From a virus: 36,038 bases of DNA. The stretch lies in UHGV virus genome UHGV-0132372; one strand, 5' to 3'. Of the stretch, positions 1,162-19,354 are shown in pieces. Position 1 is the stretch's first letter; each line of letters opens with the position of its first letter. The notes under the pieces are model-generated. The model was not told where the DNA came from, searched no databases, and saw only the letters and a program-made list of their open reading frames with translations. The translations under genes were made by a program, and so were the position numbers.

Positions 1162-1623
1162 CTACTCCCCCTTGATGCCAGCGGCGCTAAGCTTGGTATT
1201 CACATCACCTTCAAAAATAGGCAGTACACCAATTGCAGCGGCCCAGTTTTTAGCTAACTCAGGGTCAGATGTCTCGTCGGTGTAGTCTGATGCCCGCCAC
1301 CCAATCAGTCGTTTCTGACCAGGAATGTCAGAGTTTCGCTTCTCCGTTGCTTGCTCTAGAGCATTAAGAAGTGTACGTATTTCATGCTGCTGAGTAGAGA
1401 TGCTTGAGTCTTTGGCTTCCAGCTCATCCAGCAGCGCCAGCACGGTAGTGGGGTTTGCTGCGGAGTTCAGCGCGTTCAAGGCAGTGATATCTGCATCAAG
1501 CTGAGTTCCTTCTGCCAGTGAGATATCGAAAATGTCATCAGGCGGCATAACACTAAGGCGCTCATGTGCGCCAACTGCTGCCGCTGCGATTTCACGCAGC
1601 GCCTGTTTGTCGATGTTGCTCAT
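1162..1623 (-). CDS. Ead/Ea22-like protein (153 aa)
   Basis: N-terminus MSNIDKQALREIAAAA is shared with the paralog at 1889..2632 and recalls the Ea22-like family of lambdoid prophages. AAGGAA RBS; ATGA stop-start overlap with the upstream gene. Confidence 0.6.
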   Translation of the reverse strand: MSNIDKQALREIAAAAVGAHERLSVMPPDDIFDISLAEGTQLDADITALNALNSAANPTTVLALLDELEAKDSSISTQQHEIRTLLNALEQATEKRNSDIPGQKRLIGWRASDYTDETSDPELAKNWAAAIGVLPIFEGDVNTKLSAAGIKGE

Positions 1624-15185: not shown

Positions 15186-15670
15186 GCATAAGAGAAATAA
15201 ACCTCACCAAAGAACAGCACGATTGGCTGAATGGCTGGCTTGAACTGTGGGGCGCATGGGTTTATTCAGGTCGTCTGGAAAAGCGCATGAGCAGCGTAAT
15301 AGCGAAGTTCATGGAGAGCGTAGAGCCGGGAAGAGTTATGACAAGGCCAATGTGTAATGATGATGATGGAATGTTGATTTCTCAGGTCGTCGATTCCGTC
15401 ATGTGCATTGACAAGAAAGCCTTTGGAATCCTCCTCAGCTACTACGCTCATGGCTCTTCCAAGCACGCCATTGCATCTTACTATCATCGCGTCGCAAGAC
15501 CTCGCAAGATGTTATGCCGGGGCGGCGGGCGCATTCAAAAACCATCGCTCGCAACCTGTCGCCGGGAAGTTGACGAAATCCTCAATGCCTCGTTGTTTAT
15601 GATTTATCCGGTTCTGGATAGTGCGTTTAAAAACCGGAAACGTGTAGAGAAAATTAAACATGTAGCATAG
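15182..15670 (+). CDS. late-gene antiterminator Q (non-lambda Q family)
   Basis: Position between ninH and the lysis cassette; Cys-containing ~160-aa protein that I recall as resembling the Phage_antitermQ type; followed by a tR'-like terminator. Confidence 0.7.
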   Translation: MSIREINLTKEQHDWLNGWLELWGAWVYSGRLEKRMSSVIAKFMESVEPGRVMTRPMCNDDDGMLISQVVDSVMCIDKKAFGILLSYYAHGSSKHAIASYYHRVARPRKMLCRGGGRIQKPSLATCRREVDEILNASLFMIYPVLDSAFKNRKRVEKIKHVA

Positions 15671-15715
15671 AACGTGTTGATATCATTGAGCAAATGAGCA
15701 ACACTATTCGCATAA

Positions 15716-15758
15716 GCTGCCGTTAGTGACTCTTAAGTTGCAACGGTGGCTTTTTTTT
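15716..15758 (+). terminator. tR'-like terminator of the short late leader transcript
   Basis: Hairpin followed by T8; downstream context CTTGCACAACAGGTAAGAGCATTGA resembles the lambda sequence just after tR' as I recall it. Confidence 0.5.
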
Positions 15759-16009
15759 GCTTGCACAACAGGTAAGAGCATTGAACCCGCAGACCTCGCG
15801 GAATTGGTGAAAGGTGCCGCGCAGTGCAATTATCGTTGTGGTGAATGCGCAGGCTGATGCGCTAACTTATCAGCTAGATGGTGAGGTAAAGGCTCACCAT
15901 GGCGACGACGGGTAGTTCATTTACATGCCGGAAAACACAGCACCGGTCACCACACACCAAATACATACCAGGACCATAAGAGCAAAAGCTCAACGCACTA
16001 CCCTCTATT

Positions 16010-16035
16010 GCCCACCGCGCCGTGGGCTTTTTTAT
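16010..16035 (+). terminator. stem-loop with U-tract upstream of the holin gene
   Basis: GCCCAC-CGCGCC-GTGGGC hairpin followed by TTTTTTATT. Confidence 0.45.
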
Positions 16036-16141
16036 TGCAGGCCGCAGATATCATTTTCAGATGCCATGTAGCAATCAGAGTCTGACGGCCTTTCCCCTAC
16101 AAACACACACAGCACCATCCGGAAAATCGGAGGTGAGGCCT

Positions 16142-16465: not shown

Positions 16466-16898
16466 CGGAATTGCTCTGATAAAAAAATTTGAAGGTTGTC
16501 GGCTGACTGCTTACCCCGACCCCGGAACGGGAGATGCGCCGTGGACCATCGGCTATGGCTGGACCCATCCGGTTGACGGAAAGCCAGTAAAGCGCGGTAT
16601 GACTATCGACCAGCAAACCGCTGACAGGCTTCTGAAAACAGGGCTTGTTGGTTATGAGAATGACGTGCTGAAAGTTGTCAGGGTGAAGCTGACACAAGGC
16701 CAGTTCGACGCACTGGTGTCGTTCGCTTACAACGTTGGGTCGCGTGCTCTTTCCACATCTACACTGCTGAAAAAGCTGAATGCTGGCGATATAAAAGGCG
16801 CGGCAGATGAATTTCTGCGCTGGAATAAATCAGGCGGAAAGGTGATGCCGGGGCTCACGAATCGCCGCAAGGCAGAGCGAGCTCTGTTCCTGTCATGA
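16449..16898 (+). CDS. endolysin, T4/P22-type lysozyme (GH24)
   Basis: [15 protein letters not shown]...WTIGYG...[13 protein letters not shown] motif set; start overlaps the holin 3' end. Confidence 0.85.
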
Positions 16899-17362
16899 TT
16901 AGCGCACTGGTTAAGCGTTACTGGCTGCAGTTGCTGGTGCTGGCGTTAATCGGCGCACTGGCTTTCTTCGTGAACCACTACCGCGACAACGCCATCACTT
17001 ACAGAGACCAGCGCGATAAGGCCACTGAGAAACTCCTCCTGGCGACCGCCACCATTAAAGACATGCAGACCCGCCAGCGTGATGTCGCTGCACTGGATGC
17101 CAAATACACCGGAGAACTGGCTGATGCGAAAGAAACCATTGAGCGTCTGCATAGCGATGTCATTGCTGGCCGTAAGCGGCTGCAAGTCGCCGCCACCTGT
17201 GCAAAGTCAACGACCGGAGCCAGCAGCATGGGCGATGGAGAAAGCCCAAGACTTACAGCAGATGCTGAACTCAATTATTACCGTCTACGAAGTGGAATCG
17301 ACAGGATAACCGCGCAGGTTAACTACCTGCAGGAGTACATCAGGACGCAATGCCTGAAATAA
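16895..17362 (+). CDS. Rz: Rz i-spanin
   Basis: N-terminal TM segment then coiled-coil; follows the endolysin with an ATGA overlap; contains the embedded Rz1 frame. Confidence 0.8.
17124..17309 (+). CDS. Rz1: Rz1 o-spanin lipoprotein (embedded in Rz, +1 frame)
   Basis: [20 protein letters not shown] lipobox followed by a Pro-rich segment; GGAG RBS. Confidence 0.7.
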
Positions 17363-17394
17363 TTTTTTTGCAAATCACAAAGTCCATTTAATGA

Positions 17395-17417
17395 GCCTCG
17401 CGATGCGGGGCTTTTTG
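17395..17417 (+). terminator. intrinsic terminator after the lysis cassette
   Basis: GCCTCGC-GAT-GCGGGGC hairpin followed by TTTTT. Confidence 0.5.
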
Positions 17418-17563
17418 CAATAAATGCGTACCGCAACGCATGTTTTTTACACCGAACCTGCCCCTTTGGAATGGGCCTTTGAGGATACCAGTTAGTGCTG
17501 GCGAGCCTCGGTGGGCTGGTTTCCTGTGCGGCAAAGGTTCATTTCAAAGAGTAGGTACACGCT

Positions 17564-18061
17564 ATGAAATCATTAACCCTCTTCAATCAACCAATTCGTA
17601 TCGGTGAAGATGGCATGATCTGCCTCACTGATATGTGGAAAGCCAGTGGTAAAAGTGAATCTGAATCGCCTTACCACTACCTGCGAAACAAGCAGACCAA
17701 AGAGTTCTTAGCCGAGTTGGAGAAAAACCACGAATCTGTGGTTTTTACTGAGCGCGGTGTACACGGTGGAACATATGGCGGGAAGTTTGTTGCTTACGAT
17801 TATGCGGCTTGGTTAAACCCCGGGTTCAAGTACGCGGCCTATAAAGTCCTCGATGACTACTTCACCGGAGAACTTCAGCATCGCAACAGCTTAAGTGCGC
17901 AGCTCAACATGAAATGTCATGAGTTTGACCAGAAGAAAGACATGGCGAGCTTCTGCGGACAAGGGCTGGCAGCATGGCGCTATACGAAGCCAGTGTTGGT
18001 CGCTGAGATTAACTCCCTGGCTAACCAGCTGCAGATTACGATCCCCGGGCTTCCGGGATGA
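17564..18061 (+). CDS. KilA-N domain protein
   Basis: N-terminus ...IRIGEDGMICLTDMWKASGK...PYHYLRNKQTKEFLAELEK...GGTYGGKFVAYDYAAWLNPGFK fits the KilA-N/APSES-like pattern. Confidence 0.65.
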   Translation: MKSLTLFNQPIRIGEDGMICLTDMWKASGKSESESPYHYLRNKQTKEFLAELEKNHESVVFTERGVHGGTYGGKFVAYDYAAWLNPGFKYAAYKVLDDYFTGELQHRNSLSAQLNMKCHEFDQKKDMASFCGQGLAAWRYTKPVLVAEINSLANQLQITIPGLPG

Positions 18062-18327
18062 GTGATCGTGTCATTGAATGCGCCTCCAGAGCGGGGCGCG
18101 ACTTCTCAGAGTTCATGAAAGGCGAGAAGGGCATGATGGAAGCATTGGCCTCGGTGGATGAGTTTGGCGAGCAGCTGCGCCTCAACGGCTGTGTCAATCA
18201 TCACTTTGTTAGCTACATGATGCGGAACTCGATCATGCAGGCATTCATGGACATGGCAAAAGCCGAGAGGAAAGAAGAGCGCCGGCGTAAGCGAGCGGAA
18301 GCAAAAGCAAAAGCAAAAGTGAAGTAG
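18058..18327 (+). CDS. hypothetical protein with basic coiled C-terminus (89 aa)
   Basis: ATGA coupling to the KilA-N gene. Confidence 0.45.
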   Translation: MSDRVIECASRAGRDFSEFMKGEKGMMEALASVDEFGEQLRLNGCVNHHFVSYMMRNSIMQAFMDMAKAERKEERRRKRAEAKAKAKVK

Positions 18328-18621
18328 CCATTACAAAGCCTATCTACGGATGGGCTTGATAATGAAACCAAAATTTATTCTTGGCAACCAGTTACGGCAG
18401 TACCACGAAGCAACCCAAGCCAGTAAGTGGGGAAATAACACTGGCAGCCACTGAAAGATGAACCTCCTGCCTTATGGCAAAAAAGATTATTTGTGGTGGC
18501 GGACTGATGGAAAGACATCGGTTATTGCAGAGACCATTCAATGAGTGGTCTCGACAATGGCTTATACCCTACACGGGATAACTTAACTGATATCCCTTTT
18601 AACGGATAAACGGAGCCAACA

Positions 18622-18864
18622 ATGGCAGAGATTATTCCCATGACTGAAGAACAGAAATTCCAGTTAGAGATTTACAAGCTGGTCATGAACCAGAACGCAG
18701 CCGCAGAAGAAGCATTTCAATTCATTGGCACTGACGAACTGAAGCTTGAGCTATTTAAAATTCACTTCCAGTCAGGTGGCGCTAATTCAGATATCACGAC
18801 CCGAACTATCGAAGCGGTGCGTAAATCGAGGGAAGCGTTAGACCTGTTCACCACCGGAGCATGA
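18622..18864 (+). CDS. hypothetical protein (80 aa), first gene of the HslV-like cassette
   Basis: GGAG RBS; stop overlaps the downstream start region (ATGATATG). Confidence 0.5.
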   Translation: MAEIIPMTEEQKFQLEIYKLVMNQNAAAEEAFQFIGTDELKLELFKIHFQSGGANSDITTRTIEAVRKSREALDLFTTGA

Positions 18865-18865
18865 T

Positions 18866-19354
18866 ATGACCACTATTGCATGGGATGGAAAGACCCTGGC
18901 ATCTGACACCCAGGCATCATCTGGTGATGTTGTGTGTTCGTATACAGAACAAAAGATTTACACACCGCCAGAATCTGGGTGGGAGGTTTGCGGCAGTAAA
19001 GTGGTTGCATTAGGTTGTTCTGGTGATTGCGGCGCGGAGATGGAATTGCAGGAACTGCTTAAGAACAACCTGACGTATGCATCAGAATTTCTCCCGACAT
19101 TCTCTTTCACCGCGCTTGCTATCATCGGTGCTGGTCGTGCTTACATCATCTCAAAAGAGAAAGGCGAAACGCGGGCGAGTATTTCGCGACAGGTTGAACC
19201 GTATGCCATTGGTAGTGGTTGGCTGATTGCTCGCACAGCCATGCACTGCGGCAAAAATGCGAGAGAAGCGGTACAAGTCGCAATTGATATTGACTGCTAT
19301 TCCGGCGGCAGCGTTGATTCGTTCCCCGCTGGGAAGCAAACAGAAGGGAAATAA
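18866..19354 (+). CDS. HslV/proteasome-beta-like Ntn-hydrolase (peptidase T1-like)
   Basis: N-terminal [18 protein letters not shown] with Thr directly after Met, as in HslV [22 protein letters not shown]; GxSGDxxAExxL and AIGSG blocks align with HslV GFAGGTADAFTL and AIGSGG; 162 aa. Confidence 0.65.

Follow-up and report, generated by a model that had tools for sequence, protein, structure and literature searches.

The closest described relatives of the locus studied here are found in the phages HK620 and P22. In HK620, the genes hkbK and hkbL are adjacent, in this order, after the Rz spanin gene, and hkbK is annotated as 'similar to P1 KilA'. The HK620 pair was sequenced in 2001, and hundreds of E. 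coli prophages, Stx2 phages among them, carry annotated copies of it; in the literature on hkbK, PhiR49 and the mEp phages, no functional study of the pair was found. In P22, the related gene is rha. [quoted passage not shown] An RNA of 89 nt, P22F, which has the same strand as the leader described below, is found in P22 infection; its 3' end lies 6 nt before the rha ATG and it is listed with 'no known function', and P22G is another small RNA of this phage (PMC13397905, a report of 2026). Terminators inside the late operon have been noted in P22-like phages (PMC8022706). Two further systems are relevant for comparison. [quoted passage not shown]

We analyzed a stretch of 36,038 nucleotides from UHGV virus genome UHGV-0132372, referred to as the window. 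It is of the P22-like (Lederbergvirus) type, from a coliphage or prophage, with structural genes that resemble those of E212, CUS-3, Sf101 and Kapi1, and an IMG/VR contig (locus L019) is identical to it over the compared region. On the 5' side of the gene pair, Pfam and PHROG searches identified a lambda-type holin, a lysozyme and Rz. On the 3' side there are, in this order, a DUF2560 gene, an HslV-family-like gene, a gp3-type small terminase gene and the large terminase gene. An inspection of the letters alone (the sequence-only reading) had described a KilA-N gene coupled to a second, small gene, placed before the terminase and after an intrinsic terminator that follows Rz. This arrangement agrees with our results: both ORFs are present (Table 1) and overlap by 4 nt (ATGA, 18058-18061), both terminase genes lie downstream, and a terminator stem with a folding energy of -14.6 kcal/mol (z -3.2) and a U-run follows Rz. 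The ORF11CD3 domain, the identity with hkbK/hkbL, the structured leader and the 3' stem-loop were absent from that reading.

Table 1. Position of the features of the cassette and of its flanks in the window
Feature	Position	Strand	Evidence or remark
Rz spanin gene, last of the lysis cassette	16895..17362	+	Pfam Phage_lysis, E 5.5e-39; PHROG Rz-like spanin
Rz1, embedded in Rz, +1 frame	17127-17309	+	ORF translation; lipobox LAVSGC
Intrinsic terminator hairpin, GAGCCUCGCG-AUG-CGGGGCUU + U5	17393..17416	+	Stem 17393-17413, U-run 17412-17416
Second, weak hairpin + U6	17424..17448 (hairpin 17424-17441)	+	-6.9 kcal/mol, z -1.5
5' leader, long imperfect hairpin; basal helix pairs the Shine-Dalgarno region of the KilA-N gene	17449..17569	+	MFE -48.7 kcal/mol, z -3.5
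hkbK-like gene, ATG start, 165 aa	17564..18061	+	KilA-N, residues 9-101; ORF11CD3, residues 109-161
hkbL-like gene, ATG start, 89 aa	18058..18327	+	phrog_875, E 3.7e-54
Conserved 3' stem-loop without U-tract	18329..18364	+	-18.9 kcal/mol, z -5.3; right-hand end of the cassette
Non-coding conserved stretch 3' of the cassette	18394..18537	+	93% identity to nt 59-204 of the P22 small RNA P22G

The first gene encodes a protein with two Pfam domains. Its assignment to KilA-N, for which the sequence-only reading had named a profile search as the check, with a missing match counting against it, is borne out: KilA-N (PF04383) was found with E 1.3e-15 and 57.6 bits, against a gathering cut-off of 23.8, over positions 8-106 of the 107 of the profile, and the domain has the APSES-like alpha/beta DNA-binding fold. 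ORF11CD3 (PF10549) follows with E 2.4e-13 and 50.5 bits (cut-off 25; profile positions 1-54 of 54) and forms a long helical hairpin in the predicted structure. In the Pfam search these were the only two domains of the 165-aa protein, and ANT/KilAC (PF03374), P22_AR or other known repressor-binding domains were not found. Its relatives in PHROG are labelled anti-repressor or transcriptional regulator. PADLOC gave a partial and weak match to the candidate PDC-S22 (E 1.2e-8) over about 30 KilA-N residues (best stretch 60-90). Membership in PDC-S22 was rejected, since the match is partial and at the level of KilA-N only, and the BstA model of PADLOC did not match the protein. Sequence searches against PDB with both proteins of the pair gave chance-level matches only, and no NCBIfam family was found for either of them, nor for the two genes downstream.

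By sequence comparison, the gene pair is the already known hkbK/hkbL pair of HK620. The region is 96% identical to that phage, with 96% identity for the KilA-N protein and 100% for HkbL over the aligned part, and the two genes have the same order, are adjacent and follow Rz in both. The pair is also present after Rz in lambda-like phages, namely in the Stx2 phages 1717 and 2851 (the gene is named kilA in 2851), in PhiR49_1, where it is annotated 'KilA-N-ORF11CD3', and in ECP1, Dewey and several Salmonella phages, and its proteins are 96-100% identical across hosts. Among 5426 complete E. coli genomes, 525 gave a match to the pair, and in 389 of these the match spans at least 80% of the pair. 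As both ORFs are conserved as proteins, neither is a chance ORF. The ATGA overlap itself is kept in about 70 loci, and the overlap or, in the HK97-type variant, a 2-nt gap in about 80 independent loci, in a sample that was collected by sequence patterns and is not unbiased. These loci come from viral contigs, which were used instead of the genome contigs, where a scan for HkbL gave 7 loci. Frameshifted copies also occur among the sampled loci.

In P22, the slot taken by the pair in the window is filled by rha. The window is identical to P22 from the leader to 13 nt before the start codon, and it is 93% similar to P22 again from about 18394. The conserved stretch that begins there, related to P22G, is flanking context and lies outside the gene pair. 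Read from the ATG to which the leader model and the homologues point (L218:2145), P22 Rha has 178 aa and consists of Phage_pRha and ORF11CD3; the ORF11CD3 domains of the window protein and of Rha are 52% identical. Comparison of the two sequences thus shows the pair to be an allelic replacement of P22 rha, and a replaceable accessory cassette in the lambdoid hot spot that separates Rz from the packaging genes. Sharing the slot, the leader and the ORF11CD3 domain, the window protein is an analogue of Rha in which one domain has been swapped, with KilA-N in the place of the Rha domain and with hkbL added.

The position after Rz is constant whatever the type of Rz (47-100% identity), lysozyme or terminase, and in some 80 hkbL-containing viral contigs the distance from the end of Rz to the start of the KilA-N gene is about 204 nt. 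A second location is seen in Klebsiella phage RAH1, where the whole unit of terminator, leader, KilA-N+ORF11CD3 gene and hkbL lies between tail genes. The term moron, which the sequence-only reading had used, is therefore appropriate in so far as the pair is mobile and replaceable, as seen from the alternative slot genes of related phages and from its location in RAH1. It does not fit in other respects: no sigma-70-like promoter was found, a compositional signal of 'foreign DNA' is absent, the GC content of the pair not being deviant, and the genes are inside a Q-antiterminated late operon. The apt description of the pair is an allele of the slot that rha fills in P22, and not a classical moron in the Hendrix/Juhala sense.

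The terminator after Rz is kept, with altered loop and stem, in HK620, HK97 and Klebsiella RAH1, and it travels with the cassette; the equivalent hairpin of mEp235 is annotated as a terminator. In the place of the second weak hairpin of the window, other leader types have a direct repeat, GCGCAT-N5-6-GCGCAT. A scan for the sigma-70 consensus, to which non-consensus types are invisible, detected no sigma-70-like promoter on the + strand between 16800 and 19500, and the best promoter hexamers seen by eye in 17414-17475 have 4/6 and 2/6 matches. A promoter that depends on an activator, for example at the GCGCAT repeats of the other leader types, is conceivable. At the right-hand end, the 3' stem-loop is kept with compensatory changes in other loci, the sequences diverge just beyond it, and the match to ECP1 ends at 18364.

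The leader follows the second hairpin and reaches the start of the KilA-N gene. Alignment of the upstream DNA across phages revealed at least four very different sequence types with one architecture, in which the terminator hairpin is followed by a short second element and by a hairpin of about 100 nt that ends at the start codon. In five of seven leader types, a CCUUU pairs with the AAAGG of the Shine-Dalgarno region in unconstrained folds; in the HK97-type leader, pairing of the ribosome-binding site was not seen in the unconstrained fold, and this type is ambiguous. RNAalifold predicted 23 pairs from eight sequences, 10 of them compensatory. A covariance model (R1) matches the leader of the window with 81.3 bits (E 1.8e-16), which is the sole copy in the window, and there are 79 further matches in the sampled loci. 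Over 37 distinct leaders, 96.8% of the cells are paired and 15 of the 23 pairs are changed on both sides, compared with about 50% of the cells and 2-4 pairs in slid-partner controls, although this alignment was fitted to the model and the covariation count therefore leans towards structure. Folding energies did not distinguish the two strands of the leader. There was no Rfam match at the gathering threshold in the whole window, and below the threshold the region 17300-18700 gave chance-level matches only (E up to 10). A conserved upstream ORF in the leader was considered and rejected, the 55-aa ORF at 17440-17607 being restricted to leader type A.

Nucleotides 1-81 of P22F are identical to 17470-17550 of the window (81/81). 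As P22F is a discrete RNA in P22, the leader is transcribed, at least in P22, and it is probably processed from the late transcript. What the present analysis adds for this leader is its structure and covariation, the fact that it pairs the ribosome-binding site, and its link to interchangeable genes. Besides KilA-N+ORF11CD3 genes, the leader precedes genes for KilA-N+P63C, for another KilA-N type, for Rha with or without ORF11CD3, for ANT/KilAC, for HNH_3, for an HkbL-like domain fused to T5orf172/MUG113 and for an HkbL-like protein alone. Rz and a terminator are located just 5' of most copies. In Dewey and in one other locus (L014), the KilA-N gene keeps the 3' half of the leader only, since an HNH_3 gene that brings a leader 5' half of its own is inserted before it.

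The small protein HkbL had been called basic from its letters. Its overall pI is indeed 9.5, but only the last 23 residues are basic (pI 11.1), while residues 1-66 are acidic (pI 5.2). The AlphaFold2 model has three helices (pLDDT 91), and in a Foldseek comparison of this model with PDB no structure reached an E below 1, the matches being designed proteins and helical bundles of a generic kind. The family is very small: in a set of 1.84 billion proteins it has only 21 representatives when clustered at 50% identity, and there are 138 clusters at 90% identity, and all named members are from Enterobacterales. In the family alignment, the N-terminal residues, about 66 in number, are strongly conserved. 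The invariant positions are G13-R14-D15-F16-S17, F19, G22-E23-K24, F36, Q39, L40, G44, C45 and N47 (motif GRDFS..F..GEK), and C8, H48 and H49 are conserved in at least 90% of the sequences. Members are 85 to 101 aa long and differ by two-residue steps of the tail, where a GCAAAA repeat encodes (AK)n. The start codon of hkbL sits in a stem-loop of -17.4 kcal/mol.

All complete hkbL genes that we examined directly follow a KilA-N gene, including that of the most divergent member (54% identity, Trabulsiella). Two types of partner were found: the 165-aa KilA-N+ORF11CD3 protein, with the ATGA overlap, and KilA-N+P63C proteins of 242-270 aa in HK97, HK022 and mEp phages, with a gap of 2 nt. After Rha-type slot genes, including Rha+ORF11CD3, and after a 181-aa KilA-N type, hkbL is absent. 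Thus HkbL does not track ORF11CD3, a possibility that was rejected because Rha+ORF11CD3 genes lack HkbL and KilA-N+P63C genes have it. It does not track one KilA-N subclade either, since the two types of partner have just 23% identity in their KilA-N domains, no closer to each other than to the KilA-N type without HkbL; at this distance, it is the co-occurrence that links HkbL to KilA-N. Its presence with both KilA-N+ORF11CD3 and KilA-N+P63C, and never with Rha+ORF11CD3, suggests that HkbL is the cognate partner of the KilA-N module. Among distant relatives, the HkbL fold is found as the N-terminal domain of T5orf172/MUG113 proteins. In a profile-profile alignment with hhalign, HkbL matched the N-terminal domain of T5orf172 proteins with a probability of 98% and E 1.4e-13 over 72 columns, and as judged from this alignment it is homologous to that domain of these nuclease-like proteins. 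One HkbL-like/T5orf172 protein occupies the slot behind a P22F-type leader.

On balance, we favor the reading in which the two proteins of the pair form a DNA-binding module that belongs to the Bro/KilA/Rha network, is non-essential and dose-limited, is made late and is limited in translation; its role is the weakest part of this reading. Transcription of the cassette would depend entirely on Q-modified RNA polymerase that passes the terminator after Rz, in late lytic growth. By pairing the ribosome-binding site, the leader hairpin would keep translation of the KilA-N gene low. As the start codon of hkbL lies in a stem-loop and shares nucleotides with the stop codon of the KilA-N gene, HkbL may be made by termination-reinitiation coupling, and both proteins would thus appear together. 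The KilA-N domain would bind DNA, the helical hairpin of ORF11CD3 may serve in oligomerization or in contact with an effector, as in Rha, and HkbL, which is homologous to the N-terminal targeting domain of T5orf172 nuclease-like proteins, would act as the partner of KilA-N. The pair would then act on DNA late in infection, and an excess of it would probably do damage, as is reported of Rha. What we infer for the pair is thus DNA binding, a complex of the KilA-N protein with HkbL, toxicity and expression restricted to the late phase. The 'regulatory or toxin-like module' proposed in the sequence-only reading is plausible.

Other functions can be proposed for the same genes. The slot behind the P22F-type leader is also taken by ANT/KilAC proteins, the NCBI name of P22 rha is 'anti-repressor', the PHROG labels of relatives point the same way, and KilA-N, ORF11CD3, Rha and ANT are grouped in the literature on the Bro network (PMC10111431). 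This would suit an antirepressor or inducer, in which the KilA-N/ORF11CD3 protein together with HkbL inactivates the repressor of the phage itself, of a heteroimmune prophage or of a satellite, and either locks in lysis or cross-induces neighbors. However, these annotations are by homology only, the protein has none of the known repressor-binding domains that were searched for, and a switch protein would be expected earlier than after the commitment that depends on Q, so that we regard this function as rather unlikely. We give somewhat less credit to a selfish cassette. In this view, the pair would be related to the homing-type genes (HNH_3, T5orf172) that colonize the slot but would have no nuclease; it would be maintained by recombination at the leader and at the 3' stem-loop while being of little use to the phage, and the hairpin would do no more than limit the damage of read-through. 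HNH_3 and T5orf172/MUG113 genes do share the slot and the leader, T5orf172 proteins have the HkbL fold as their N-terminal domain, mosaic joints are seen no more than 13 nt from the start codon and immediately past the 3' stem-loop, an HNH gene is found inside the split leader of Dewey and L014, frameshifted copies exist, and hairpins that sequester the ribosome-binding site are used by the homing endonuclease genes of T4 (PMC2988022). On the other hand, the pair has no nuclease domain, about 10% of the complete genomes of E. coli retain it, and its proteins are strongly conserved, the invariant motifs and the 96-100% identity across hosts arguing for selection on function.

A defense or toxin-antitoxin-like unit, in which the KilA-N protein is a toxic or abortive effector, as P1 KilA and BstA, HkbL is its neutralizer and both are made in the lysogen to exclude phages, appears quite improbable to us. 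The tight coupling of the two genes and a throttled translation, which would fit a harmful product, are in line with it, as are the KilA-N-like N-terminus of the prophage Abi protein BstA (PMC8585504) and the weak PDC-S22 match (E 1.2e-8). Being described as a prophage-encoded defense protein, BstA would be active in the lysogen. For the pair, however, no promoter for lysogenic expression was found and a terminator is directly upstream, and it belongs to the late operon whereas bstA is beside the repressor gene. Moreover, the BstA model has no match, PDC-S22 covers only about 30 KilA-N residues, the C-terminal domain differs, and the order with the large protein first, with no autoregulated promoter found, is atypical for a type II toxin-antitoxin system. 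A DNA-binding protein encoded beside the terminase might also be an accessory factor for packaging or late DNA, which assists or regulates genome packaging as the HNH protein gp74 of HK97 does. The slot is immediately 5' of the packaging module, HNH endonucleases occur in the same region of HK97-like phages, and the phenotype of Rha depends on IHF, which is also used at lambda cos. But the pair is found with four unrelated terminase systems (P22 gp3-type, lambda Nu1/A, HK97-type and DUF1441-type) and once, in RAH1, among tail genes, which makes a packaging role highly unlikely, and many close relatives carry Rha or other genes instead.

We tentatively extend the favored reading, the DNA-binding module of the Bro/KilA/Rha network, to a wider proposal that seems to us possible and less than probable. 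The leader may represent an unclassified family of cis-regulatory RNAs of lambdoid late operons, which gates the translation of a harmful gene in the slot after Rz (KilA-N, Rha, ANT, HNH_3 or T5orf172) and serves in addition as a recombination joint for the exchange of cassettes. KilA-N and HkbL would form a two-protein DNA-targeting unit, with HkbL as a free-standing T5orf172 targeting domain that is used in conflicts among phages, prophages and satellites.

The pair itself is ordinary, and the leader analysis, the allelism with rha and the domain relationship of HkbL are modest additions. As rha is the one slot gene with a described phenotype, harmful without IHF, a test of IHF dependence would be natural for the KilA-N version. 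The shared, covarying leader and the match to P22F offer a testable route to how lambdoid phages tolerate and exchange genes of the Bro network. Finally, the linkage to KilA-N and the T5orf172 homology are a first handle on the HkbL family, which so far is only a PHROG number.

Compared with the described systems, the locus is closest to hkbK/hkbL of HK620 and to its equivalents in 2851 (kilA), 1717, PhiR49_1, ECP1 and Dewey, which have in common with the window the proteins, the ATGA overlap and the place after Rz. The differences are not substantial: it departs from HK620 in the (AK)n tail of HkbL, the protein having 85 aa there and being four residues longer here, and in the leader, which is of type B in HK620 and of type A in the window. 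P22 Rha (orf201) has the same slot, the same 81 nt of leader, the ORF11CD3 C-terminus and a similar two-domain size (178 against 165 aa). However, its N-terminal domain is Phage_pRha and not KilA-N, rha occurs without hkbL, and the IHF phenotype is known for Rha only. The KilA-N+P63C genes of the HK97 gp73 type (HK97p60/p61 and their equivalents in mEp235 and HK022) share the leader family, the N-terminal KilA-N domain and the adjacent HkbL homologue, but they have P63C instead of ORF11CD3, a distant KilA-N domain (23% identity) and a 2-nt gap in place of the overlap. [quoted passage not shown] The hairpins of T4 I-TevI, segB and mobE pair the ribosome-binding site as the leader is predicted to do, and the leader family likewise serves HNH and GIY-YIG-like genes, comparable to the T4 homing genes. 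The T4 hairpins contain a late promoter by which the ribosome-binding site is freed, whereas none was seen in the leader of the window. This leader is about 100 nt long, covaries over at least four types of sequence and is represented in P22 infection by a discrete small RNA, P22F, the 3' end of which is close to the slot gene, immediately before its start codon.

HkbL, the 89-aa protein encoded directly after the KilA-N gene (18058-18327), varies from 85 to 101 aa among the loci compared, in steps of two residues (AK), and its basic tail is encoded by a hexamer repeat; the variation looks like slippage polymorphism. Four of its residues, C8, C45, H48 and H49, are at least 90% conserved in the family, C45 being invariant, and might form a putative metal-binding site. 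Between hkbL and the DUF2560 gene lies a non-coding stretch, which at 18394-18537 (+) matches nt 59-204 of P22G, a small RNA reported for P22, with 93% identity. It contains a terminator-like hairpin and a 35-aa ORF that was found again in many relatives. The only Rfam hit for this stretch was Proteo-phage-1 at 18378-18449, which is sub-threshold (17 bits vs 42). Further downstream lies a 162-aa gene for which Pfam, NCBIfam and PADLOC gave no match. This gene is found in phage Dewey and some relatives and is missing in HK620 and P22, and is therefore a second accessory gene of variable presence ahead of the terminase.

Features of the window and of related loci (positions are those within each record)
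Feature	Record	Position	Strand	Remark
GCAAAA hexamer repeat	window	18301-18318	+	three copies; HkbL basic tail
35-aa ORF	window	18474-18581	+	starts MAKKIICGGGLMERH; in P22G-like stretch
Terminator-like hairpin	window	18484-18463	minus	in P22G-like stretch
162-aa gene	window	18866-19354	+	between DUF2560 and small terminase; PHROG 1040 'peptidase HslV family', E 3.7e-37
KilA-N copy	L010, Actinobacillus phage vB_Apl-pPE4	1971-2566
KilA-N copy	L011, Candidatus Nanosynbacter MAG contig
HNH_3 insertion	L002, phage Dewey	2641-3324
HNH_3 insertion	L014	2571-3243
rha GTG, annotated start	L218, NC_002371	2076
rha ATG	L218, NC_002371	2145
tRNA-Asn and tRNA-Thr	L006, E. coli EH08-18-36 prophage	1184-1339		between Q and holin
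GCGCAT direct repeat	L001	3370-3400		leader types B-D
GCGCAT direct repeat	L007	1125-1150		leader types B-D

The E. coli-type KilA-N gene was also present, with 96-99% identity, in two records from unrelated hosts, in one of which (Actinobacillus) hkbL is reduced to its first 22 codons. These copies look like contamination, mis-binning or very recent transfer. An HNH_3 endonuclease gene, accompanied by a leader of its own, interrupts the interval from Rz to the KilA-N gene in Dewey and L014. Upstream of the Dewey KilA-N gene, just the 3' half of a leader is kept. Leader copies in tandem, with different genes, were found in three other loci (L098, L116 and L145).

In P22, the annotated GTG start of rha ('orf201') falls within the leader hairpin. 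The leader covariance model, the 3' end of the P22F small RNA and the homologues alike point to an ATG 69 nt downstream; read from this codon, Rha has 178 aa (Phage_pRha+ORF11CD3).

A close relative, the EH08-18-36 prophage, carries two tRNA genes; ARAGORN detected none in the window, including the corresponding region at 15670-16140. In most leader types (B-D, for example L001 and L007), the segment that separates the terminator from the long hairpin holds a GCGCAT-N5-6-GCGCAT direct repeat followed by AT(A/T/C)AA; this repeat could be a candidate protein-binding site or weak promoter element; the leader type of the window and P22, in contrast, has an inverted repeat and U6 at this position.
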